Source: Opitutia bacterium | GTDB lineage: Bacteria > Verrucomicrobiota > Verrucomicrobiia > Opitutales > Opitutaceae | Assembly (NCBI GenBank): GCA_947478395.1 | Contig: CANJVR010000002.1 | Span: forward strand, 608,001 to 672,000 | Reading direction: 5' to 3' | DNA: 64,000 nt | Shown: piece after piece, positions 45,418 to 58,136 of the stretch | Layout of the letters: each line of letters begins with the position of its first letter | Position numbering within the stretch: position 1 is the first letter of the stretch | Position numbers and translations under genes: made by a program | Notes under the pieces: model-generated | The model's database searches: none | Seen by the model: only the letters and a program-made list of their open reading frames with translations | What the model was told of the DNA's origin: nothing

Positions 45418-45447
45418 GTCGCGGCAGGCGTCTCAGCCTGCCGCTAC
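45418..45447. repeat. REP-like palindrome (GTAGCGGCAGGC family)
   Basis: GTCGCGGCAGGC-GTCTCA-GCCTGCCGCTAC; same core as 9854-9922. Confidence 0.7.
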
Positions 45448-45495: not shown

Positions 45496-48400
45496 TCACG
45501 GATCGACGTCGTAAACTTCCACCAAGGCGATACCGGTGTTGTTGGTGGAGCCCACGCCGCTGAGTTGCGCGGTGTAGGCGCCGGGGGCCAGCATGATGAT
45601 GATCGCCGAATCTTTGCTGCCGTTCGCCAGCGGAAACGCTCCGGCCGCCGTCGAGGCCGCCGCGATCACGGCAGCGTCGTCGCCGGCCGCCCAGTTGTCG
45701 TTAGTCGCGAGGGTCACGCCCGCACCATTGAGCAACTTGAGTTGCGGATCGGGCAACAGACTCGCCGCGGGCAAACCGAAATTCGCCAGGGTCAGACCCA
45801 CGCCGCGAATCAAGAGGCGACGCGAAACCGTCCCGTTCACCACGAAGCCCGCGATCAGAATATTTTCACCGGTGCCGACATTGCCGCGGGTCGAAACGTT
45901 GATCGCTTTCGGTCCGGTCAAGGTCGTACTCGCATCATAAACCTCAATGAGCGCCACCCCGGTGCTCGTACCGGCGCCGCGGGCCTGCACGGTGTAGCTG
46001 CCCGGGTTGAGCGTCGCGAGAATCACGGAATCCAGCGAGTTGTTCGCGAGATTAAACGCGCCGAGCCGGTTCGTCGCCTGCTGGATCGCAGAAACCAGCG
46101 TGGTGTTGGTCGCGGCCACGGTGCTCTGTGTGCCCCAATTGTCATTTGTCTGCACGCTCACGCCCGCAGAGTTGAGCAGAGTGAGATTCGGGTCAGGCAA
46201 CACTCCGGCCACGCCGAAACCCGACAGGCTCGGTCCGATCACGCGAATCAGCATCTGCTTTGTGGCGGTGCCGGTGACAACAAATCCGGCTGTCAGTACA
46301 TTGGCTCCGGTGCCCGCGACGCCGCGGGTCGAGATATTCCCGAGGCGCGTGGGTTGAACGGACAGCGTCAGCAACGCAGGGTCGCTCGTCGTCGACGCGA
46401 CCGCACTCGTCACGACCGCCGAGTAGCTGCCGGTTTTTGTGGTATCGACGTTGGTGACGCTGAGCAGCGGATTGGTCGCGCCGGCAATCGGCGCGCCGTT
46501 GAAGAGCCATTGGTAAGCGAGCGGCGGCTGGCCGACGGCGGCCACGCGGAACAACGCACCGGAACGCGCCGAGACCGTGAGCGCGACGGGCTGCGTCGTG
46601 ATCGTCACGTAACGATACGTGTAGAGCGAACTGCCGAGCAACGAGCTCGCGATGGCCGTGGTGTCGGCCAATGCCGCGAGGGCCGTGACTTGCGCGGCCG
46701 TCGGCTGGGCTTTCAAGAGCTGATAGTAAAGCGCGGCGGAACGGGCGAGATTAAGGAAAGTGGTGTTGGTCGAGTTTTTGACCGTGATAAACTCGGCGAT
46801 GGCCGTGTTCAGGCCGGCAACGGTGTAGCCACGACCGATCGGACCGATCGGTGGCGCCAGCACGACGGTATCGTTGTCGTGGAATTGCACGAGCTCCAGC
46901 GCCGTGGGAGCCCGGCCAAATGCCGACTGCCAGAGGCGCGTCGCGAAGGGCGTATAGGCGTTAGCGTAGCTCGCATTGAGCGTCGCGGCGGTGGTCGAGC
47001 CGTACTTAAAAATATATTCCGGCGATCCGAGGATGAGGCCGATGACCGTCGCGAGATTATTGCGGCTCGCATAGAGCGTCTGGTAGTTCGTGTACGTCGG
47101 CCATTCGTTCATCAACAGGTAGTACACCGCGCACAGGTTCACGTTGTTGTTGAACGCCGGATCGGCGGCCAACGCGGCCGCCAACTGCGCGCGAGTCGTC
47201 GTGCCCGCGGCGATTTGCGCCGAGGAGTTGGCCAGCTCGATCGCGTTGGGATTGCGCACGAGAATGTCCTGGTACGTCTGCAAAATGAAGGCGTCGTCGT
47301 CGATGATTGGGTTGTTGCGCTTGACCGTGACGGTGAACGGCGCGGCGATCGCGGTATTGCCGGTGTTGTCGGTGGCCAGCGCATAGACGCTGAAGGTGCC
47401 CGACGCCGTCGCGGTCCAGTTCAGCAAATAACTCGGCGCGACCGTGCTTGTGCCGACACTCACGCCGTTGGCGAAATATTGGACGGAGCTCACGGTGCCA
47501 TCGGCGTCAAAAGCATTCGCGCTGAGTTGCACCGGCTGGCTGAAGGCGACCGTAGTCTTGTCGGCCGCGATGTTGATCGTCGGCGCCGCACTCGTGGAAT
47601 TGACGACGTTGATGTTCGTCGTGCCCGAAGCGGCGAGATTGCCCGAAGTGTCGCTCGCGATCGCGACAACTTCCGTAGCGCCCGTGGGCAGGCCGGCAAA
47701 AGAGGTATTGATCCGCCAGATGTTGCTCGTCTGGTCGCGCACGGCCTGGCCGATGCTGGAACGGTTCACGAAAAATTCGACGGCAGTCACGATACCATCG
47801 GCGTCGGTCGCGGTGGCGTTGAAGTTCACCGTCGAGTTGGTGGTCACGGTGCCGGGGACGTTGATGGTCACTACCGGAGCGAGGCCGACAAGATTGTTGA
47901 CGACGACATTGCGCGAGGCCGTGGAAACGGTTTGCGCTCCTGCAGAGTCGCTGCTTCGCGCAGTGACGGCATACGTGTTCGCGATCGTGGGCGTCCAGAC
48001 CGCGCGGTACGTATTGGTCGTTCCCACACGTTGGCCGGCGGCGATCTGGGTGCCGTTGCCCAGAAAGACAACGGTGAGCGTCTGCCCAGCGTCGGCGTCC
48101 GCGGCGGTCGCTTCAAGGAAGACCGGGGCGTTGGTGTTCGTCACGGTCGCGTTGTCCGACGGACGAACCAGGATCGCGGTCGGGGCGGTATTGCCGGTGA
48201 CGTTGATCACCACCGAGGCGGAAACGGCGGTATTGCCGGTGTCGTCAGTCGCAACGCCGTAGACGTTGAAGCGCCCGGCGGTCGTAGGCGTGTAGTTTAC
48301 GGTGTACAACGGTCCGGTGGTGGACGTCGCGATGGCGGTGCCGTTCGCGAAATATTGCACCGATGCAATGGTGCCGTCGGGGTCGATCGCGTTGCCGACC

Positions 48401-50643
48401 AATTGCAGCGCGGTTCCGGCTGTCACGGTCGCAATACTGGATGTGATCGTGACGCTCGGCGCGGAGCTTTGCGATGGATTGGCCGTGAGATTTACCGTCG
48501 TGGAGATCGACTGGTTGCCGCTGTTGTCGCGGGCGATCGCATAGAGCGGAATAATATACCGGCCGTTCGCGTCGGGCGTAAGGGCGGCGTAGTTGACGTT
48601 GGAAAAATTGTAGACGAGACGGTAGACGTTGCTCGTCTGCTCGCGTGCGGCGAGGCCGACGGACGTATCGGCGAGGAAGAACTCGACCGACGCGATCGTG
48701 CCGTCGGTGTCGAAAGCGTTGGCCACGAGATTCACCGACGAAAGCGTCTGAATCGTCGTCGCCGCATTACCGGTCGGCGCGCTGATCGCGACCGTGGGTG
48801 GAGACCCCGTGACACTAGCCACGGTGACCGCGATGACATTGGACGTGGCGGTGAGGGAATTGGCGTCCGTGACCCGTGCGGTGAGCTGATGCGCGCCGAG
48901 TTGCGAGGTATCCGGCGTCCAAGCGATGGAGTAAGGTGCGGTCGAATCAACGCCGAGCGAAGCGCCATCGATGAAAAATTCCACGAGCGTAATCGCGGCG
49001 CCACTGCCGCCGACCGCCGTGGCGGTGAGTGTGACGGGGACGCCCGGAGTGACGCGTGTGCCGTCGCGCGGAGCGGTGAGCGAAACCGTCGGCGTGCCGA
49101 AGGCGGCGGTGATATTCACGGTCGAGGACACGGCGGTGTTGCCGCGGTCGTCGGTGGCGATCGCCTCGATGGCGTAGGCTCCGGGTGCGGCCGGCGTGAA
49201 GTTCGCGACGAATGGCGTGGCGACCACCGGATTTCCGATGGCGATACCGTTTTGATAAAACTGCACGCCGGTGATGGTGCCGCCAGCGGACGAGGCCGCG
49301 GTGGCGGCGAGATTGACGGCGACGTTCGGCACCACGCTCGCGTTGTTGCTGGGAGCGAGCAGCGCCACGATCGGGGGGGCGCCCACGGCGCTGACGACGT
49401 TGAGCGTGAGTTGGGTATCGCGGGAAGCGCCGGCGTTGTCCGTCGCACGAGCGACGACATTATAAATACCCGGCGCGGCTGGGGCCGTATATTTAAAAGT
49501 GAAATTGGAAGTGGTCGTCCCGGCTCCAGCGTTGGTGGCCAACGCTGACGCGGCGGTCTTCTCGCCGATCTTCGTCCCGTTCACGAAAAATTCCACGCGC
49601 ACCGGGGCTCGTCCGGCCATCGGCGTAACCGCGGCATTGAGATAACGCGTGGCGCCAGCCGGCAAGGTCATCGCGCTATTGGTCGTGGAGCCCGGCGAAG
49701 CGGTCAGCACCACCGCCGGCGAAGAGCTATCCGTGACCGTCACCATGCTCGCGGGCGAAATGATCGCGTTGCCCCTGTCGTCGGTCGCGAGCGCCGTGAT
49801 TGCGACTGCACCCGAAGCGGATGGCGTCCAGTTAAACGACCATACCCCGCCCGCTGGGGTGACCGTACCCAGCGATTCACCGTTACCGAAGATCTGCACG
49901 GAGTTGACGACGCCATCGCTGTCGCTCGCCGTACCACTGATGGTGCTGGCCACACCTACCGGCACGAACGCGCCGTTGAAAGGCGCGCTGATCCCGACCG
50001 TCGGCGGTACGCCGATGGCGTTGGCAATCTCGATGTTTACCACCGGCGAGTTTACCTGAAGGGAAACGTTGTCGACGGCGACAGCCATGAGCGTGTGCAA
50101 ACCGGGCAATGCTGGCGCCGTGAAGAGAAAGTTGTAGGGCGCGCCAGTTTTGGTCGCGACGACGGTCGAGCCGTCCAGGTAAAGATGGATGTAATCGATG
50201 GAACCATCGTCCGTCGCCGTGACTTTAACGTAGCGCGAGGAGCCAACCGGGATCGAAGTTCCGCCGCCCGCAACGGTAACGGACACGGTGGGATAAATTC
50301 CGGTAACTGAAATGGATGTCGTGACCGCTGTGCCCGTGACACTCGACAAGGTAGGCGTCGCGCGGATCGTGTACGTCCCAACGACCGTCGGCGTCCAGCC
50401 GGAGAAGCTCCACGACGTTCCGGTAACGACACCGGATCCCGAGGCGACGGTGGCGCCCGACGTATTGATCACCGCCACGGCGACCGTCGTCGAACTTGTG
50501 CCGACGGTGCCCGAGATCGTCACGACGCCGGCCGCGACCACACTGCCGGACGGGCTGCCGATCGTGGCGACCTGAGAACGAGCAATCGTCCCTGCGAACG
50601 AGAGCGCCATGATCGCACAACCCAAGCGGCGCAGAAATGACAT
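45496..50643 (-). CDS. Large secreted surface protein: 11 bacterial Ig-like repeats, DUF4214-like helical repeats, I-set Ig and tandem Verrucomicrobia-type C-terminal domains
   Basis: Signal peptide MSFLRRLGCAIMALSFAGTIARS; ~95-aa repeats (P.V....P...A.D.DG....V.F..NG....TP...G.Y...A.ATD..GN); F....Y...L.R.P helical repeats; ITTQP..YQW..NG Ig domain; two domains beginning RLGNISTRG and KAINVSTRG, each ending LxEVYD. Confidence 0.88.
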   Translation of the reverse strand: MSFLRRLGCAIMALSFAGTIARSQVATIGSPSGSVVAAGVVTISGTVGTSSTTVAVAVINTSGATVASGSGVVTGTSWSFSGWTPTVVGTYTIRATPTLSSVTGTAVTTSISVTGIYPTVSVTVAGGGTSIPVGSSRYVKVTATDDGSIDYIHLYLDGSTVVATKTGAPYNFLFTAPALPGLHTLMAVAVDNVSLQVNSPVVNIEIANAIGVPPTVGISAPFNGAFVPVGVASTISGTASDSDGVVNSVQIFGNGESLGTVTPAGGVWSFNWTPSASGAVAITALATDDRGNAIISPASMVTVTDSSSPAVVLTASPGSTTNSAMTLPAGATRYLNAAVTPMAGRAPVRVEFFVNGTKIGEKTAASALATNAGAGTTTSNFTFKYTAPAAPGIYNVVARATDNAGASRDTQLTLNVVSAVGAPPIVALLAPSNNASVVPNVAVNLAATAASSAGGTITGVQFYQNGIAIGNPVVATPFVANFTPAAPGAYAIEAIATDDRGNTAVSSTVNITAAFGTPTVSLTAPRDGTRVTPGVPVTLTATAVGGSGAAITLVEFFIDGASLGVDSTAPYSIAWTPDTSQLGAHQLTARVTDANSLTATSNVIAVTVASVTGSPPTVAISAPTGNAATTIQTLSSVNLVANAFDTDGTIASVEFFLADTSVGLAAREQTSNVYRLVYNFSNVNYAALTPDANGRYIIPLYAIARDNSGNQSISTTVNLTANPSQSSAPSVTITSSIATVTAGTALQLVGNAIDPDGTIASVQYFANGTAIATSTTGPLYTVNYTPTTAGRFNVYGVATDDTGNTAVSASVVINVTGNTAPTAILVRPSDNATVTNTNAPVFLEATAADADAGQTLTVVFLGNGTQIAAGQRVGTTNTYRAVWTPTIANTYAVTARSSDSAGAQTVSTASRNVVVNNLVGLAPVVTINVPGTVTTNSTVNFNATATDADGIVTAVEFFVNRSSIGQAVRDQTSNIWRINTSFAGLPTGATEVVAIASDTSGNLAASGTTNINVVNSTSAAPTINIAADKTTVAFSQPVQLSANAFDADGTVSSVQYFANGVSVGTSTVAPSYLLNWTATASGTFSVYALATDNTGNTAIAAPFTVTVKRNNPIIDDDAFILQTYQDILVRNPNAIELANSSAQIAAGTTTRAQLAAALAADPAFNNNVNLCAVYYLLMNEWPTYTNYQTLYASRNNLATVIGLILGSPEYIFKYGSTTAATLNASYANAYTPFATRLWQSAFGRAPTALELVQFHDNDTVVLAPPIGPIGRGYTVAGLNTAIAEFITVKNSTNTTFLNLARSAALYYQLLKAQPTAAQVTALAALADTTAIASSLLGSSLYTYRYVTITTQPVALTVSARSGALFRVAAVGQPPLAYQWLFNGAPIAGATNPLLSVTNVDTTKTGSYSAVVTSAVASTTSDPALLTLSVQPTRLGNISTRGVAGTGANVLTAGFVVTGTATKQMLIRVIGPSLSGFGVAGVLPDPNLTLLNSAGVSVQTNDNWGTQSTVAATNTTLVSAIQQATNRLGAFNLANNSLDSVILATLNPGSYTVQARGAGTSTGVALIEVYDASTTLTGPKAINVSTRGNVGTGENILIAGFVVNGTVSRRLLIRGVGLTLANFGLPAASLLPDPQLKLLNGAGVTLATNDNWAAGDDAAVIAAASTAAGAFPLANGSKDSAIIIMLAPGAYTAQLSGVGSTNNTGIALVEVYDVDP

Positions 50644-50730
50644 CAAGCGTGTGGGCGAGTGGGGTTCAAGGCGCCCCACCCCGCAGAAACGGAAAAAATT
50701 CATGGCGGTATTTCCAGTGAGGGCTGCGGG

Positions 50731-53547
50731 TTACTTGTTACCGTCGTTGCCGCCGCGCGTGCGGGCCTCGGCGCTGGCCGGAGTGACGATCGTCGGATTC
50801 TGAAAGAGTGAATTCGCCGGCGTGCTCTTCAGGTTCTGCTTCTTTGGCGAACCGCCCGGACTCACGAGATTCGCTGTAACAAAGATCAGCAAATTGCGCT
50901 TCTGCGAACTCTCGCCCTTCGAGCGGAAAAGCCGGCCGACGAGCGGGAGGTCGCCGAAGAACGGCACTTTATCGTTCACCTTCTTCACTTCCTCACGCGT
51001 GAGCCCGCCCATGACGAGCGTGGCGCCGTCCCAGATCGTGACCTTCGTCGTGATTTCGCGAACCGAGAAAATCGGCTGATAAAAGCCGGGGGGCACCGTG
51101 ACCGTCGTGCCGGAGGAAATCGCGACGCTCGGGCCACCGTATTCCACGAAGCCTTCGAACTCGGTGACCTTTGGGTTCAAATCCAAGCTGATGGAGTAAC
51201 CGTCTTCCTCAACGGTGGGTGTGACTTTCATTTCCACGCCGACGTTGCGGCTCGTGAATTCCTGCGGCGTGCCTGCGGTGATCGTGACGCCCGCGCTGCC
51301 CGTGCCGGTGCCGCTGGAAGAACCGACTTGGCTCTGGATTTCTCCGTAGCTCTGCGGATAACGCAGCTCCTGCGCGATCGTGATGTTCGCCGGATTACCT
51401 GAGAGCACCGTGACTTTCGGCGAACTCAGCAGATCGCTACCCTGCTTTTGCGAAAGCGCGCGGACCACGGCCGAGACGTCGAACTCGCCGACGAAACCCG
51501 TGATACTGGCAAGCGCACTGGCTGTGCTGGCTAGGGACACACCGCCAGGAATTAAACTTGGAGCAACGGGTATGGAAAGACTGGTGGCCGGGGATGCACT
51601 TACTCCGGTAGTCGAATTGGCCGCAATTGCCGCGGTATTGATGTTAAGGCTATTGCCATTCGAACTGCTAGGAAAAGCACCCGATAGCGAACGATTCACC
51701 CCATCCGTACCGTACGTTTCCTGCGGGGTGAAGACCTGGCGTCCGTTGCTATCGAGCACCGGTGCGCCGGTGGTCGGATTGACCTGCGGCACGCCACGGC
51801 GGGAAAGATTCCATTTCACGCCGAGTTCCTCGAGCGCGCCTTCCTGGACCTCCATGAACTTCGATTCGATCTCGACCTGGCGAACGTCGTTGTAGCGATT
51901 CAGAATGTTGCGGATGCGCTCCACGTTGCGCGCCGTCTGCGTGACGATGATCGCCGATCCGTCATACGCGAGGCTGCTGCCCTCGGGCGAAAAACTCACG
52001 CCCGCCTGCTGCAAAAATCCCCGCATCGAGGCGGCTTCACCCACCGTCGACGATGACTCCGCCGCGCCACTCGAGGCGTCGGGCTTGCCGCCGCCGATCC
52101 CCGTCATGCGCAGGACCGTCGCGCGCGTGATCGGGAAAAACGCCGTCTCCAACGTGCTGGTCTCGCCGCCGGGACGCACAATCACCGCGTCGGCCTGGAC
52201 CTCATACTGGTAGCCGGCCGCCTCGGTCACGAAATCGAGCACGCGTTTCAACGAAGCGTTACGCAGCGTCAGCGTGACCGTCGGATTTTTATTCGTGGGA
52301 TCGAGCAGCACGATATTGACGCCCTTGGGCGTGGAACCCGTGCGATCGTACTCTTCAGACGATGCACTCAGGGCCGCCACGACCTGACCGATCTCGGCGC
52401 GGGTGAAGCTCACGCTGGGGAGCACGATGTCGTTAAGTTTCTTCGCGAGCGGCGCGACGGCGGCGGAAGCGTCGGTTTCGCGCGCGCGCTCCTGATAGAT
52501 ACCAGGACGCTGCCAGCCCTTCGCCACTTCCTCGAGCAGTTGCGTGCGGGTCTTCTCGCGGTTCAACGCGCCCGTCTCCGCTTTTTCGCCCGCAATGCGG
52601 AGCAGAAATCCCTTCGCAACGGTGTTGTCGGGGGCCTGCGCCTCGACCGCCCGAAACGTCTCCTGCGCGCCGTCGATGTCGCCGGACACATATTGCGCGC
52701 GACCTTTCGCGATGAGTTGTTCCGTCGCAGCACGCTCGGCGAGAAACGTGGCGTCCGCGCCGTCGCGGGACGGGGTCGCCCCGCCTCCACTATTGCTGGA
52801 TGCCGGGCGCGCGAGCTGCCGGGAAATCCCGGCGGCGCGGCTGCTGTTGGGTTCCAAAGCGGTGGCCGCGGCCAGCGTGGCGCGAGCGCCATCCGCATCG
52901 CCCTGCGAGAGCTGGGCCTGCGCTTGGTCGTAAAGATAGGACGCTTTGTCGCGCTTCAAATCGGCGATGGATTTTTGCGTGAGCGAATTGGACGGGAGCG
53001 AGGCCAGGGCGACATCGATTCTCGCGAGTGCGAGATCGAGCTGTCCCTTGCGCGCTTCGGCGCGGGCGGCGTCTTGCTGGGGTTTCACGTCGGCGATCAA
53101 GCCGTTGATCCGGCGAGTCTCACCCGCGGCCAAGGCGTCGGCTTCGGCCTCGGCATTCATGACCGGCTGACCCGGCTCCGGGATCTTGACGTCAATCATC
53201 ACCGGCGCCGCCGCCGTGGACGCTGGCGCGGGCGGCGGATTAAAGGGCGCCTCGGCCGCACGGGCCACGGCGGCCTCGCGCTTTTTTTCCAAGGCGGCGA
53301 TCTCGGCGCGCAGGCGCCCGACTGAGGGATCGGTGGGCGCGAGGGCCGCGACCTGATCAAGTGCGCGGTTCGCGCCCGGAAAGTCACCCGCGTCACGGGC
53401 GCGCAGCACCTCGGCCATGAGCCTGATTTTCTTATCCGCCGTCGCGTCTTGCGCGGCGAGGCGAACACCCGGCAGAGCCAAGGCCGCGACGAACGTGAGC
53501 GCGGCGAGCAGGGCAAAAAGCGACTTGGGCAACAGGATTTTTTTCAT
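50731..53547 (-). CDS. Outer-membrane secretin (GspD/PilQ family, Amuc_1098-like) with N-terminal TPR-like extension
   Basis: Signal peptide; TPR-like helices; N-domain (LRNASLKRVLDFV); secretin domain QVEIESKFMEV, LSSPKVT, VGVEMKVTP, GATLVMGGL, DKVPFFGDLPLVGRLF, LLIFVTA. Confidence 0.92.
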   Translation of the reverse strand: MKKILLPKSLFALLAALTFVAALALPGVRLAAQDATADKKIRLMAEVLRARDAGDFPGANRALDQVAALAPTDPSVGRLRAEIAALEKKREAAVARAAEAPFNPPPAPASTAAAPVMIDVKIPEPGQPVMNAEAEADALAAGETRRINGLIADVKPQQDAARAEARKGQLDLALARIDVALASLPSNSLTQKSIADLKRDKASYLYDQAQAQLSQGDADGARATLAAATALEPNSSRAAGISRQLARPASSNSGGGATPSRDGADATFLAERAATEQLIAKGRAQYVSGDIDGAQETFRAVEAQAPDNTVAKGFLLRIAGEKAETGALNREKTRTQLLEEVAKGWQRPGIYQERARETDASAAVAPLAKKLNDIVLPSVSFTRAEIGQVVAALSASSEEYDRTGSTPKGVNIVLLDPTNKNPTVTLTLRNASLKRVLDFVTEAAGYQYEVQADAVIVRPGGETSTLETAFFPITRATVLRMTGIGGGKPDASSGAAESSSTVGEAASMRGFLQQAGVSFSPEGSSLAYDGSAIIVTQTARNVERIRNILNRYNDVRQVEIESKFMEVQEGALEELGVKWNLSRRGVPQVNPTTGAPVLDSNGRQVFTPQETYGTDGVNRSLSGAFPSSSNGNSLNINTAAIAANSTTGVSASPATSLSIPVAPSLIPGGVSLASTASALASITGFVGEFDVSAVVRALSQKQGSDLLSSPKVTVLSGNPANITIAQELRYPQSYGEIQSQVGSSSGTGTGSAGVTITAGTPQEFTSRNVGVEMKVTPTVEEDGYSISLDLNPKVTEFEGFVEYGGPSVAISSGTTVTVPPGFYQPIFSVREITTKVTIWDGATLVMGGLTREEVKKVNDKVPFFGDLPLVGRLFRSKGESSQKRNLLIFVTANLVSPGGSPKKQNLKSTPANSLFQNPTIVTPASAEARTRGGNDGNK

Positions 53548-54395
53548 GGCGAAGAGGAAGCGGGAGATTCGGTGGGATCGAAGCGGACCGGCAACGTGCG
53601 CCGTTCCGGCAACTCGAGCGTAGGCGCGGTCTTGGTGATTTCGATGGCGGCGGGATCAAGCACGATTTTTTCGATCCGGTAGTTCGCATCGCCAATTTTA
53701 AACACGTCGCCGACCCGCACTTCGCGAGTCGCGGTTTCACCCGTGGACGCAACGAGCGCGAACATATTGCCGGAAAAATGCCGCTCGCGTTGCGTGAGCG
53801 TTACGTCCTGCCGCGACTGTTCGTCGTGAATCACTGCGGTCGCGACGCGTTGGTTCACCGTCATGCTTTCGGGCAGCGTGATGCCCTCGCGGCGCACGCC
53901 GAAAGCTTTCACGGTCAGCGCGAGATTCGGCACGCGCCGGCCGGCGGCCGCGAGAAAGATTTCACCGCTCATCCGGTTTTCAAACACGCCCCGCGCATCG
54001 GCGTCTTCGCCGACGTAGCCGATGAGTTGCAGGCGGAACGGATCGCGTTTCACCGCGACCAGCTCGACGCCGAAGGGCAACTCCGGCGTGTCGTCTCCGA
54101 CGCCGAGAGGGGGCTTTACCGCGAATTGGCGCGTGCGGGGACTATAGAAGATTTCCGGCGGGGTGAAAACGTCGTACACCCATTCGCGACCGCGGGCCAG
54201 CGGCGCCGGCGCATCCCAAACCTCGGCCTTCACCGCCGGTGCATCGACCGCCACCGGCACGTAGATGGGGCCGCTCAACACCGGTCGTCCCACGGGACCA
54301 ACAGACCGCTCGCGCCAAGCCTGCACCCCGCACACCGCCGCGGACGCCAACAGCAAACCGGCGGCAGCTAAGAGAATTTTTTTCGCGGAAGACAT
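53544..54395 (-). CDS. Hypothetical membrane-anchored operon protein (positional Amuc_1099 equivalent)
   Basis: N-terminal hydrophobic anchor, beta-rich body (FTPP.I.Y, QLIGYVG); ATGA overlap with the secretin start. Confidence 0.7.
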   Translation of the reverse strand: MSSAKKILLAAAGLLLASAAVCGVQAWRERSVGPVGRPVLSGPIYVPVAVDAPAVKAEVWDAPAPLARGREWVYDVFTPPEIFYSPRTRQFAVKPPLGVGDDTPELPFGVELVAVKRDPFRLQLIGYVGEDADARGVFENRMSGEIFLAAAGRRVPNLALTVKAFGVRREGITLPESMTVNQRVATAVIHDEQSRQDVTLTQRERHFSGNMFALVASTGETATREVRVGDVFKIGDANYRIEKIVLDPAAIEITKTAPTLELPERRTLPVRFDPTESPASSSP

Positions 54396-54401
54396 CGCGG
54401 A

Positions 54402-55460
54402 TCAGGAGGTGGCAGGCGCGGTAGCAGGCGCGGCCGGCGGCGGCAGGAGATCGATGAATTCGACCACCACCGTAAATTTCGAAAGCGCCTTCGGCACGAG
54501 TGGATTTACCGTGGGTGGCTTCGCTTTGGGCGGGACCGTGACGCTAAGTACAACGGAAGACGGCGCGGGCACCGCAGCCTCTTCGGCCGCTGCAGCCGTT
54601 GCGGCTTCTTCGCCGGTCGCGGGCTCGACCTCGACGGCACGCACGATCACCGGCAACTCGAACCCTGCGAGTTTATTGAGGAAAGCGCGCAACGCCGCTG
54701 TCTGCCCCGTGAACACCAGCCGAAACGCCGTGACTTCTACGATGCCAGGTGCGTTGGCGCTCAAGCGCGGGTCGAGAGAGAAGTAGTCGGTCGAGAGTGA
54801 GACGAAGTCTTCGGTCCGAGCGGCAGCCCCCCCCGCCCCATTTTCCGTCGGAGCGGCGGCCGCCGCCGCGAGGGCCTCGGCGCGGGCTTTGCGTTCGTCG
54901 TCCGTGAGCGGGCGTTCGCGCTGGAGGCTCAGCAGCGCCCGCGGCCGCGCGTCGAGGAGCGCATCAACGAGGTACTGCACCACGAGCCGCTGATGAAACA
55001 CCGGAGCGATCAGCGCCGTTTCGGGACCTTCGTTGGCGTAGAGAGAAAAGCCGAAGTGGGCGGCCGCCGGCTGGACGTCGACGCCGAGCCGTTTCGCGCG
55101 ATTGCGGGAATTTTCGATGAACGTCGCCAGGTCGAAAAACGCGTCCGTGCGCGCGGCGGGCGGTTTGGCGGATTTAAATCGCTCCGCGGCCGCGCCCCGA
55201 CCCTGAAGTTCCGCCTGCATCGCGGCGAGCGCGCGATGCGCGCGAGCTAGATCGGCCTCAATTTGGGCGGCGGTTTCGCGCGAAGGTACGGGTCCAACGG
55301 CGGCGAGCTCGGCGAGCGCCGCACGTTTCTGCACCAATTTCTTTTCCGCCGCGCGCATGTCCGAAATCCGCTGCACCATCAGCCCTACCTCACCGACCGC
55401 GACCAGCCCGAGCAGCAGCAGTGCGACCACAAACAGAGGACTTTTTTTCAAGGCAGGCAT
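54402..55460 (-). CDS. Amuc_1100/PilO-like protein
   Basis: N-terminal TM, coiled coil, FGFSLY motif, PilO-like FTGQTAALRAFLNKL...VIVRAVEV, terminal VVEFIDL; position in the operon. Confidence 0.72.
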   Translation of the reverse strand: MPALKKSPLFVVALLLLGLVAVGEVGLMVQRISDMRAAEKKLVQKRAALAELAAVGPVPSRETAAQIEADLARAHRALAAMQAELQGRGAAAERFKSAKPPAARTDAFFDLATFIENSRNRAKRLGVDVQPAAAHFGFSLYANEGPETALIAPVFHQRLVVQYLVDALLDARPRALLSLQRERPLTDDERKARAEALAAAAAAPTENGAGGAAARTEDFVSLSTDYFSLDPRLSANAPGIVEVTAFRLVFTGQTAALRAFLNKLAGFELPVIVRAVEVEPATGEEAATAAAAEEAAVPAPSSVVLSVTVPPKAKPPTVNPLVPKALSKFTVVVEFIDLLPPPAAPATAPATS

Positions 55461-55468
55461 GCGATCAT

Positions 55469-57169
55469 TTACAGCGGACGCTTCGGACTCACGACCAGCG
55501 TGAAATCGAAGCGCAGCAGGCCGGGTTGGGTGTTATCGAAATGCTCGTTCTCGACGGCGGCGACGAAGGCCGAGCCGGTGAAGCTCGCGAGCAGTTTCTT
55601 GACCCGTTCATTCGATTCCGGGCTCACGTTGGACACCGGATTAGCCACGTCGAGCAGTCGGCCGCTCAAGGTCAGCCTTAATGGCGGAGCCTCGACGGCG
55701 GGTGCCGTACCGGCGGCAGCGTCAGGGGCCGCCGCGGGGACGCTGTCGGAGGAAGGAACAACGATTGAAATTTTCTCGAGCCAGACGTCGCCCACTTTGG
55801 CGAGGCGGCTTTGGAGATCGCCGAGGAAATTGATCCAATTCGCCTTGGTCGCGACGAGGCCATCGATGGCGGCGATCTGCTTTTTGGCTTCTTCGATCCG
55901 GGCAAGATGATCCGCGTTACGCGCTTCGACTGATCGCAGGGGCATCAATTGCGAGTCAGCCTGCGAAATGAACGACTGCACCGCCGCGACGCGTTGGTTA
56001 AAATAAAGGACGGGGGGCAACAGGGCAGCGACCGCGAGGACCGCGGCCGCGAGCAGGACCGGCTGCTGCTTGCGGAAGGCCAGCGTCGCCGTGAGGGCGG
56101 GCGGAAGGAGGCTCGCGTCAGCTACCTCCGAATCGATCAGCGGCACGGCCAGGCCGACGAGATCAGCCAGTAGCGCGGAGACACTCTCCGCGCCCGCGGC
56201 GCGGGCATCGGCGGAGACATCGATGGTCTTGAGTGGCTGGTAACGTTCGACCGGGAGTTTGAGCCGTTCGGCCAGCACCGCGGGCAGTTCGGCGATGAGC
56301 GAACCGCCGCCCGTGAGATAAAGTGTCGCGGGCTGGCCGGTGCCGCTCTGGCGGCGGTGGTTGATCGTGGAGCGATTGATCTCCAGATGCAGGCGCCCGA
56401 TGAATCCGGCCGCGGCCCGTTGCACGGCGGCGCGGGCGGGCGAGGCGTCGGACAAATCGGAGCGCCCGGACAAGACCGAAACCTTCAACCCCTCGGCCTG
56501 CGCGAAATCGATCGCGAGTTCATCGGCGATCGCCTGCGTGACCTGATTGCCGCCGAGCGCGAGGGTGCGGTTGGTAAAACGCTCGCCGTCGAGAAACAAT
56601 AGACTGGTCGAGCGCGCGCCGATGTTGACGAGCACCACGCTGGCGGCCGCGCCGGGCGTGTTGAGCCGGAAGGCCGCGCGCATCGCGAGACAGGCAGGCG
56701 TGGCCCGGTTCACCGCGAAACCGGCCGCGTCGAGGCCAGTGCAGAGCGCGTCCATCGCGTCGAGTTTCACCGCCGCCAGCATGACCTCGAGGTCGAAGCC
56801 ATCGTCCGCAATCACGACGTTATTCCAAACGACCTCGGCCAGCGGGTAGGGAATGTTCTGCGAGGCCTCGAATCGGATGGCCTGCTCCCGCTTGCTGCGA
56901 TCGAGCGCGGGCGCCTTGATGAATTTCGTGAGAGCGAGATGGCCCGGTATCGCCAGCGCCGCGGCGCCCTTGATTTTTTCACGCGCGGCGATGGCTACAA
57001 GCGCCTGCGCCACCTGATCGTTCCACCGCGCTTCGTGCGCCGGATCGGAATCGATGAACTCGAGGGCGAACCGTTGCAGGACGATGCGACCGGTCGCGCC
57101 GAGCCCAAACACGCCGCAGGCGACGTGACCCGCCCCTAAATCAAACGCGAGAATTCGTGAGGAACGCAT
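55469..57169 (-). CDS. PilM-PilN fusion (Amuc_1101-like)
   Basis: Actin-like PilM domain (FDLGAG, FEASQNIPYPL, NIGARST, GGNQVT, YLTGGGS), then SLLP + TM + coiled coil + VWLEKI PilN-like domain; start ATG 57169. Confidence 0.85.
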   Translation of the reverse strand: MRSSRILAFDLGAGHVACGVFGLGATGRIVLQRFALEFIDSDPAHEARWNDQVAQALVAIAAREKIKGAAALAIPGHLALTKFIKAPALDRSKREQAIRFEASQNIPYPLAEVVWNNVVIADDGFDLEVMLAAVKLDAMDALCTGLDAAGFAVNRATPACLAMRAAFRLNTPGAAASVVLVNIGARSTSLLFLDGERFTNRTLALGGNQVTQAIADELAIDFAQAEGLKVSVLSGRSDLSDASPARAAVQRAAAGFIGRLHLEINRSTINHRRQSGTGQPATLYLTGGGSLIAELPAVLAERLKLPVERYQPLKTIDVSADARAAGAESVSALLADLVGLAVPLIDSEVADASLLPPALTATLAFRKQQPVLLAAAVLAVAALLPPVLYFNQRVAAVQSFISQADSQLMPLRSVEARNADHLARIEEAKKQIAAIDGLVATKANWINFLGDLQSRLAKVGDVWLEKISIVVPSSDSVPAAAPDAAAGTAPAVEAPPLRLTLSGRLLDVANPVSNVSPESNERVKKLLASFTGSAFVAAVENEHFDNTQPGLLRFDFTLVVSPKRPL

Positions 57170-57479
57170 GCGGGGTGCTGGAAAACGATTTAACTTGAGC
57201 CCTCGCAGCAAGCGGAAACTAGGGGGCGCACTGAGAATGTGGTTGTCATGCTTAACGACGGTTCCGCCGGGCATGATCGCGATTCCCTTTAAAATGGGGC
57301 CCTCAAGGCAGAGCACCTCCTCTCTTTTGAACCATCCCTCACTCATTTTATCCGCTTAACCTCAATAATCTTGAGCGCGACCGCACGCTTAGGCCCATCC
57401 GAATAAACAACGAGAAAAATTGCCCCAGGACCGCGCGCGGCCTGCAGCCCCATGGGGTTTCGCCTCGGCGCTCAACCTC

Positions 57480-58136
57480 TCACCTTGGAGCTACGGCTTC
57501 CCGCCGCACAAACGACGGCGTGGTCCGCGGATATTCCAGCGCGAACGGCGTGAGGTATTGCGGCTGAAACAAGCCATCGTTGGCCGGCGCAGCCGCGAGC
57601 GCTGAGGCTTGAAAACCTTTGCGGGCGGCATCGTCCGCGAGTGCGATGGCCCAGTTGGCTCGTCCCGCGGCAACCGGCTTACCGCCGACCGCCAGCGCCA
57701 CGCTCCAGAACTTAGGATCGCCGTGGAGTTGATCGCGTTTCACGAGTTCCGGCGGCAGGTAAAAGCGGACCCCAGTCCGACCTGATTCCAACGCCACGCA
57801 CTCGGCCGCGGCCCGGTAGTAATCGACCCGTTTTTCGGACGAGCCGGCCGGCGTCGCTGCGCCGGGTAATTCAAAACCGACGGTCAATTCAACCCCCACC
57901 CGATTAACGGTGCGCCCCGCCACGGGCGTGGCCGCGAGCATGACTTCGGCTTCGAGCCAGGACCCGGAATTTCTAGCCACCGGCGTGACCGTGCGAAACC
58001 GGACCGCGCTGACACTTATATCCTCGGATGCAACGGCAACGCCCGCGAAAACGATCCATGCCAGCAGCCGACCGAGGTTTCGCAGTGAGGAAGGGCGCAC
58101 GGAAAAAATGGTTGTCGGAGCTTTTCCCGGCGTCAC
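57480..58136 (-). CDS. Exported hypothetical protein (Amuc_1102-like)
   Basis: Signal-like LLAWIVFAGVAVA, WLEAEV, FYLPP, YLTPF; upstream of and co-oriented with the pilM-like gene; start uncertain. Confidence 0.6.
   Translation of the reverse strand: MTPGKAPTTIFSVRPSSLRNLGRLLAWIVFAGVAVASEDISVSAVRFRTVTPVARNSGSWLEAEVMLAATPVAGRTVNRVGVELTVGFELPGAATPAGSSEKRVDYYRAAAECVALESGRTGVRFYLPPELVKRDQLHGDPKFWSVALAVGGKPVAAGRANWAIALADDAARKGFQASALAAAPANDGLFQPQYLTPFALEYPRTTPSFVRREAVAPR

Follow-up and report, generated by a model that had tools for sequence, protein, structure and literature searches.

We analysed a 64,000-nucleotide stretch of DNA (the window) from an Opitutia bacterium, located in a genome, G000, of 3.31 Mb and 98.8% completeness. 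Between window positions 45496 and 58136 we confirmed six minus-strand open reading frames (ORFs), namely five genes resembling the Amuc_1102-1098 (MUL2) cluster of Akkermansia muciniphila followed by a giant gene encoding 1,735 residues. The flanks are housekeeping genes, with pdhABC divergent upstream and zwf and opcA downstream. The layout is as follows:

57480..58136, minus strand: Amuc_1102 (MUL2A)-like protein, 218 residues, first gene of the cluster (weak homology and synteny)
55469..57169, minus strand: PilM-like, Amuc_1101-like protein, 566 residues from the conserved start (the ORF, 55469-57346, encodes 625)
54402..55460, minus strand: Amuc_1100-like (PilO/PilN-like) membrane-anchored protein, 352 residues (NF038287; 6kny profile match)
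53544..54395, minus strand: Amuc_1099-like protein in the PilP position, 283 residues (synteny and weak NF042425 matches of relatives)
50731..53547, minus strand: Amuc_1098-like secretin, 938 residues, with an N-terminal TPR region and STN/N0 domain (PF00263, NF042912)
50704..50730, minus strand: 27-bp spacer from secretin stop to giant start (ORF coordinates)
45496..50703, minus strand: giant secreted protein, 1,735 residues, with a signal-like N-terminus, immunoglobulin (Ig) stalk, predicted lipopolysaccharide (LPS)-anchor domain, Ig domain and PPC-like pair

The ORF coordinates agree with an earlier note on this DNA in giving gaps of 8 bp and 6 bp and an ATGA overlap into the secretin. The Amuc_1102-like gene is more loosely joined, lying 310 bp from the conserved PilM start; in 14 of the 15 relatives measured this distance is 49-92 bp. 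The same note had placed a secreted protein of about 1,715 residues 28-88 bp past the secretin stop. The giant is indeed directly and closely behind the secretin, but the distance is 27 bp if the gene starts at 50703 and 87 bp if it starts at 50643, and a length of 1,735 residues is more likely because the ATG at 50703 matches the spacers of 18-28 bp found at 20/20 ortholog loci, which carry nine genus labels. This spacing is compatible with a single transcript, and on the sequence the giant is likely co-transcribed with the secretin. A terminator scan listed no terminator-like site in the spacer, and promoter and terminator scans of the window gave counts at chance level (2 versus 2.8; 20 versus 20.2). 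A 9-bp hairpin whose T run is on the plus strand lies 51 bp past the stop of the giant, at window 45421-45444. One freshwater metatranscriptome (word share 0.14; 40 contigs compared) gave, among the matches listed, 98-100% matches over the giant, the secretin, the Amuc_1099-like gene and the pdhA genes; the spacer was bridged by 0/8 pieces among these matches.

The order Amuc_1102, PilM, Amuc_1100, Amuc_1099, secretin had been equated with that of the Akkermansia cluster, and both homology and order hold. When compared with the Amuc_1098-1102 models, the secretin (NF042912, 420 bits, cut-off 750), the PilM-like protein (NF045709, 322 bits, cut-off 650) and the Amuc_1100-like protein (NF038287, 68 bits, cut-off 180) each match their own model below its cut-off. 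On these scores the window proteins are homologs of, and not equivalog members in, the corresponding NCBIfam families. The Amuc_1100-like family profile also matches the Amuc_1100 structure 6kny (E 4.5e-8). Neither remaining protein has a direct family match; NF042424 (Amuc_1102_rel) is matched weakly by 8/22 aligned members of the Amuc_1102-like family (best E 3.6e-5), and NF042425 by 3/24 aligned Amuc_1099-like members (best E 1.5e-3). A PDB sequence search with these two proteins and with the PPC pair of the giant gave no match at E<0.09. Among general models, the secretin scores 125 bits with PF00263 and the PilM-like protein 82.6 bits with PF11104 (cut-off 27), and the TIGR cut-offs for PilM (116 of 133) and PilQ (126 of 284) are not reached. 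Nor does the secretin reach the GspD cut-off (TIGR02517, 144 of 351), and its operon carries PilM-type genes instead of GspC/L/M. The Amuc_1102-like protein has a hydrophobic, signal-like N-terminus and lacks a type IV prepilin motif. The PilM-like protein has a hydrophobic segment at residue 428 of the 625-residue ORF and a C-terminal extension that we infer to be PilN-like. At locus L184 two tandem Amuc_1098-like secretin genes end the operon. In Akkermansia, Amuc_1098 is described as an outer-membrane, TPR-bearing secretin and proposed PilQ (PMC4960237), and the cluster proteins as enriched in the envelope fraction (PMC5332112). The cluster is reported as the MUL2 locus, linked to mucin acquisition (10.64898/2025.12.30.696933; PMC12418764), and its conservation extends to aquatic Akkermansiaceae, where coaE and rho lie close by (PMC13174399).

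The giant itself is divided into four regions behind its signal-like N-terminus, a feature judged by eye and shared by its orthologs:

47317..50298, minus strand: ten tandem Big_7-type Ig repeats, residues 136-1129 (PF17957, repeat profile)
46648..47310, minus strand: helical DUF4214-like domain, residues 1132-1352, predicted LPS O-antigen anchor (PF13946)
46360..46611, minus strand: I-set/Ig_3-type Ig domain, residues 1365-1448 (PF13927, 30.8 bits)
45499..46359, minus strand: tandem PPC-like jelly-roll pair ('NISTRG' domain), about 140 residues each (NF038127, fold model)

It carries no GGxGxD (RTX) repeat and no C-terminal membrane segment, and a Pfam scan found neither an autotransporter nor a propeller family in it. 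A search with PF03865 (TpsB) gave no match, but no positive control matched either and the result carries no weight. Big_7 repeats number 9 to 23 in complete orthologs of the close clade and 7 in L061. The C-terminal 600 residues are under purifying selection (dN/dS 0.06-0.31 in 4/4 pairs). A named homolog, K0B96_05190 of the cultured species Horticoccus luteus, is 33% identical over the helical domain; this homolog makes Opitutaceae the most likely family, and the taxa of atlas matches point to Verrucomicrobiota. Within G000 the giant is the sole ORF with this Big_7-type repeat and one of seven ORFs of at least 1,100 residues with a PPC-like unit.

The helical domain occurs once in G000. When isolated it passes the PF13946 cut-off (27.9 bits against 23.2), as do 5/16 family members, and the whole protein stays under it (21.1 bits); in an atlas search with the domain, 27/30 matches were DUF4214. 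Its model (predicted local distance difference test, pLDDT, 78) has as best match among 48,161 chains the LPS-bound N-terminal domain of RsaA (7peo; 177 residues aligned, root-mean-square deviation 6.2), with a Z of 7.8 that falls short of what the tool treats as safe for helical folds; the next row has 4.9. We predict from these matches, and from the O-antigen binding reported for the DUF4214 protein Psh, that the domain is an LPS (O-antigen) anchor, in which case the giant must cross the outer membrane. The PPC pair was modelled as two jelly rolls (pLDDT 80) with Z of 8.3-9.4 to Tk-SP, PliG and collagenase PPC/collagen-binding domains. Against NF038127 (DVUA0089), a model matched by 7/9 members, it scores 26.5 bits (cut-off 29). 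Its 30 atlas matches are all unnamed Verrucomicrobiota clusters, and a weak match to Por_Secre_tail, which would be the C-terminal sorting domain of a type IX secretion (T9SS) cargo, was seen in 1/9 PPC pairs, not the window's.

To place the giant among relatives, we used 201 genomes of the family, a sample of a larger group whose members are not independent, so that the co-occurrence figures below are tallies and not statistics. The secretin is matched in 149 of them. We inspected 58 of 148 family matches, comprising the 40 top-ranked (several with contig ends near the gene were skipped) and 18 across further genera. As the earlier note had proposed, the Ig gene is conserved next to the secretin, with a giant ortholog there in 20/58 loci under nine genus labels; among the 20, contig ends truncate three, one is broken into two ORFs and one lacks the PPC pair. 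At a further 6/58 loci (two genus labels) other Big_7 giants, differently built, stand behind the secretin, and in other families 3/20 loci have PPC or other giants at the same position. When 11 candidates were scored per genome, the helical region was found at E<1e-30 in 24/201 genomes, once in each and always together with the secretin; 19 of these genes are adjacent to it and five are broken by contig ends. The domain is missing from the operon-less genomes G007 and G067, and in the same genus three of four operon-bearing members match strongly, the fourth being cut by a contig end. Two further observations were made near this position. At L095:10713-11462 a 249-residue secreted protein with one PPC-like unit lies between secretin and exonuclease. 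Beside L093, at G004:C1:647790-648701, an open frame of 1,489 residues that weakly matches the helical-plus-Ig region is convergent to the slot gene of that genome.

That the giant is single-copy and lost with the operon would also suit a structural accessory bound to the secretin or to a pilus tip, with a PilY1-like role, and not a passenger. PilY1 has a C-terminal beta-propeller, and several of the proteins found behind secretins carry PD40 or RCC1 propellers. The window protein has no propeller match, is not encoded with pilins and is absent from 32/58 loci, and we consider this explanation quite improbable.

The locus carries no extension ATPase, platform protein, prepilin or prepilin peptidase (0/16 ORFs scanned, 36552-63989), as the earlier note had said. 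Taken there as the mark of an unusual system, the absence loses that meaning, because all four are encoded elsewhere in the genome, and the ATPase, platform and pilin genes are lost with the operon and stand right behind the secretin in 2/20 loci from other families. In G000 we counted four secretins, four platform genes, a single prepilin peptidase and seven ATPases that pass the T2SSE cut-off; prepilin genes likewise lie at other loci, a prepilin motif being present on 13 ORFs. Pfam cut-offs are passed for PilM, secretin, PilB, PilC and PilD. Two clusters resembling type II secretion systems (T2SS) and one island contain secretins of their own. Two loci are without a secretin. One is a coaE-rho-pilB-pilT-pilB-pilC cluster (C1:212146-220653); the other (C6:756-7911) is a pilin cassette in which the four larger genes match the Verru_Chthon A-D models weakly. 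The two PilB paralogs score 616 and 623 with the TIGR PilB model, not reaching its cut-off of 676, and PilB2 lies slightly above that for GspE (637 versus 630). PilT, encoded between the pilB genes, scores 452 with TIGR01420 (cut-off 319). The island-like fourth secretin system (C2:304620-324042) has its own PilT-like and PilB-like ATPases, platform and pilins, and its secretin gene is immediately preceded by two large secreted ORFs; similar clusters occur in L125 and L129. In the second T2SS-like cluster the secretin is spread over two consecutive ORFs of 416 and 392 residues (C4:97013-99465).

Across the family genomes the operon, pilB/pilC and the cassette are present or lost together. Counted as both, secretin only, other only and neither, the tallies against the secretin are 140/9/2/50 for PilM, 117/32/4/48 for PilB2 (at E<=1e-170) and 120/29/2/50 for the cassette, which was tracked by one of its genes. 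Thus 117/121 PilB2 genomes and 120/122 cassette genomes are secretin-positive. The four genomes with PilB2 only are G024, which has a stop in pilB2 and a split pilC, and three of 68-77% completeness. Five operon-less genomes have no PF11104 match. Three of them (G007, G067, G003) retain coaE-rho-pilT and have lost both pilB genes and pilC; of the other two, one has an isolated pilT and one a decaying cluster. From this joint loss, the parts missing from the locus would be pilB/pilC and the Verru_Chthon-like cassette. The motor genes are also found near the operon. In G193 a single strand carries secretin, giant, one ORF, zwf, opcA, coaE, rho, pilB, pilT, pilB and pilC, with the motor cluster about 10 kb behind the giant, and G076 has the same order from the giant onward. 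In other families, pilin-pilB-pilC lies directly behind the secretin at L178 and pilB-pilC two ORFs further at L176, and coaE and rho are nearby in 6/20 loci. Internal stops in pilB2 or pilM at L119 (G024) and in G161, G157, G143 and G173 suggest ongoing decay of the machine in several lineages.

The family has a second operon type, a compact set of five genes ending in a secretin and pilMNOPQ-like by size and order. Its secretin is matched in 146/201 genomes, G000 not being among them; only the secretin matches Pfam, the first four genes giving no match at E<=1e-4. At 44 inspected loci, 43 of them informative, Big_7 Ig giants (16 loci) or RCC1-type giants (5 loci) stand directly behind the secretin, within about 180 bp, in 21/43. 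Pfam was run on two of the five RCC1-type giants. The PilT retained alone beside rho may serve this operon. The loci are:

L128:5785-10333; L123:6384-11127; L126; L130; L131-L170: compact pilMNOPQ-like operons
L156:6118-12435; L158; L160; L169; L170: RCC1-repeat giants, 2,100 to over 4,500 residues, behind the compact-type secretin

The helical domain is absent from the type-B giants and the Big_7-type repeat from the RCC1 giants. Taking both operon types and the other families together, at least four unrelated or distantly related proteins thus sit in this one position, a recurrence that favours a functional tie. The same recurrence, together with spacers constant at 18-28 bp over nine genus labels, speaks against an insertion that came about by chance next to a strong promoter and was passed on within a single clade, with no functional tie. 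Such an insertion would fit the many large surface genes of these genomes, including the seven PPC-pair ORFs of at least 1,100 residues in G000, and the conservation of other neighbours, such as the 5'-3' exonuclease and pdh genes, which have no evident tie; we think it very improbable. A wider proposal, which we put forward only tentatively, is that the pilMNOPQ-type operons of Verrucomicrobiota are export-and-display machines with an exchangeable cargo slot behind the secretin. The MUL2-type and the compact-type machine would each use a pseudopilus, Verru_Chthon-type or other, to drive a giant of their own through the secretin, these giants being Ig proteins with an LPS anchor or a propeller, or proteins of the RCC1 or PPC type. 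Our literature search, with supplements (including the MUL2 synteny figures of PMC13174399) outside its scope, found no description of a giant gene behind a verrucomicrobial secretin.

The 'NISTRG' pair had been suggested as a mark of cargo, and this was not borne out. PPC-like units occur on 15 ORFs of G000, the pair being C-terminal on most carriers and N-terminal on two. The pair is found in 116/201 genomes, and its tally against the secretin (both, secretin only, PPC only, neither) is 90/59/26/26, so that it is present in 26/52 secretin-negative genomes and missing from 59/149 secretin-positive ones. We therefore rejected it as a sorting signal of this secretin; the ortholog at L043 and the type-B giants at L137 and L148 also lack the pair. 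As a marker of the first T2SS-like cluster (T2SS-1) it gave no signal, the T2SS-1 secretin being matched in 22/24 genomes without the pair and 22/24 with it. A tree of 48 PPC pairs separates supported groups by operon type (17/18 rows, support 100/99; 11/12 rows, support 99/95) and leaves the relation between the two groups open.

Our best explanation, to which we give an even chance, is that the front genes form the frame and secretin of a split MUL2-type type IV filament machine, likely with the PilB/PilC motor and the pilin cassette encoded elsewhere, and that the giant is a likely co-transcribed, predicted LPS-binding adhesin that likely exits via this secretin. Once the single PilD has processed the cassette pilins, PilB and PilC would build from them a short pilus or pseudopilus beneath the secretin. 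The giant would cross the inner membrane by Sec and, once periplasmic, fold into a chain of Ig domains. In the weakest step of the scheme, the filament may push it through the secretin, like a T2SS piston or a pilus carrying an adhesin. The DUF4214/RsaA-like domain is predicted to hold the giant on O-antigen, with the variable-length stalk projecting outward and the PPC-like pair adding a binding surface. The earlier note suggested that the apparatus may be a T2SS-like exporter with the Ig protein as its substrate or adhesin. Adjacency and spacing are conserved; the locus is not a stand-alone machine, its dedication to this cargo is not supported, and export through the secretin is what we infer. 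A complex prediction of secretin residues 130-465 with giant residues 1132-1735 scored 0.01, which counts neither for nor against.

Several results weigh against this explanation. At 32/58 loci, under 23 genus labels, no giant stands behind the secretin and a 5'-3' exonuclease gene is the usual neighbour. These loci carry the operon without a giant, and the proposed dedication of the apparatus to a giant cargo is not borne out; the giant is optional, most genera running the machine without it. Relatives are not independent, and the ortholog set amounts to one or two events. Thirty-two secretin-positive genomes have no PilB2 match at the strict cut-off. PilT does not follow the operon, being carried by 174/201 genomes and retained in operon-less ones, and was rejected as a marker of the machine. 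For the anchor, the Z noted above is joined by a Foldseek search with the helical domain that returned nothing at E<=0.001, only phycobilisome-linker matches at E 0.45 or worse. No one domain common to all slot proteins was found. PPC pairs lie on many proteins in the 26/52 secretin-negative genomes, and those proteins must leave by another route. Finally, G000 has two complete T2SS-like clusters, and the T2SS-1 secretin is matched in 44/48 genomes; with T2SS-1 nearly always at hand, gene order alone cannot choose between the adjacent secretin and the general T2SS.

This last point bears on a rival in which the machine is the same but the general T2SS exports the giant. The giant would have only its promoter in common with the pilus operon and, regulated together with the pilus, would act next to it as an LPS-anchored adhesin or coat, much like the tapirins discussed below. 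In two genomes, G000 and G007, the T2SS-1 cluster includes PPC-pair genes (C4:40695-44729; L124:3406-5415), PPC-pair proteins are common without this secretin, and unrelated giants in the slot suit co-regulation as well as cargo. Set against these are G039 and G063, which have many PPC-pair matches and no T2SS-1 secretin match, and the constant position directly behind the secretin at two operon types, which this route leaves unexplained. We regard it as possible, if rather doubtful.

The giant is a concrete candidate passenger for a MUL2-type machine. The Akkermansia MUL2 system is heavily studied, and the joint loss supplies a candidate motor (pilB/pilC) and pilin cassette for it. The exchangeable slot, if real, would add another independent example of a type IV pilus apparatus turned to secretion, and would give RsaA-like LPS-anchored proteins a Sec-dependent route. 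Should the link be co-regulation only, the locus is an ordinary pilus operon to which an adhesin gene has been added.

The closest known system, Amuc_1098-1102, is alike in its five genes, their order and the TPR-bearing secretin (PMC4960237); the coaE and rho found nearby in Akkermansiaceae (PMC13174399) have their parallel in the 6/20 loci from other families. It differs in that all three direct NCBIfam scores here are under cut-off and a giant Ig gene follows the secretin. The Akkermansia MUL2 descriptions, as far as consulted, name no cargo, motor or pilin partner and leave open a pilus, glycan import or protein export. Like the type IVa pilus, the window has PilM, a PilO-like protein, a gene in the PilP position and the secretin in one operon, with pilB, pilT, pilC, pilD and pilins elsewhere; in Pseudomonas and Myxococcus, too, pilMNOPQ is a separate operon. 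In contrast to that pilus, there is an extra Amuc_1102-like gene, PilM is long and includes a membrane segment, PilB has two paralogs and the cassette is Verru_Chthon-like; PilT is kept when the rest is lost, and neither a major pilin nor a PilY1 is clearly present. Type II secretion is alike in the proposed route (Sec, periplasmic folding, secretin exit) and in the score of PilB2 just over the GspE cut-off. Here, however, the alignment genes are of PilM type with no GspL/M/C, the secretin is far under the GspD cut-off, and two separate T2SS clusters exist. In PilY1 adhesins the gene lies among the minor pilins, whereas the window giant has no propeller match and its gene lies outside the pilin cassette. 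RsaA exits by type I secretion (T1SS) and carries RTX repeats. The giant has a helical domain of the DUF4214 type, as does Psh of Pseudomonas putida, and a moderate fold match to the N-terminal domain of Caulobacter RsaA, and differs from both in its signal-like N-terminus, the lack of any RTX repeat and the internal position of the helical domain after an Ig stalk. The giant RTX adhesins of T1SS differ likewise, the window protein having zero GGxGxD repeats and a signal-like N-terminus. Caldicellulosiruptor has a Gram-positive-type envelope. Its tapirins are described as adhesins encoded beside a type IV pilus locus, their physical link to it being left open (10.1101/359786). The location of an adhesin gene beside a pilus locus is alike, tapirins have a beta-helix fold, and we claim no homology. 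RsaA is reported to bind LPS (PDB 7peo; PMC6978808), and Psh (RTX-DUF4214) to bind O-antigen, leave by T1SS and carry RTX repeats (10.64898/2026.09.02.748959). Set beside these systems, the locus likely belongs to a known kind of machine, for which joint loss indicates likely motor and pilin partners, and adds an optional giant with a predicted LPS anchor.

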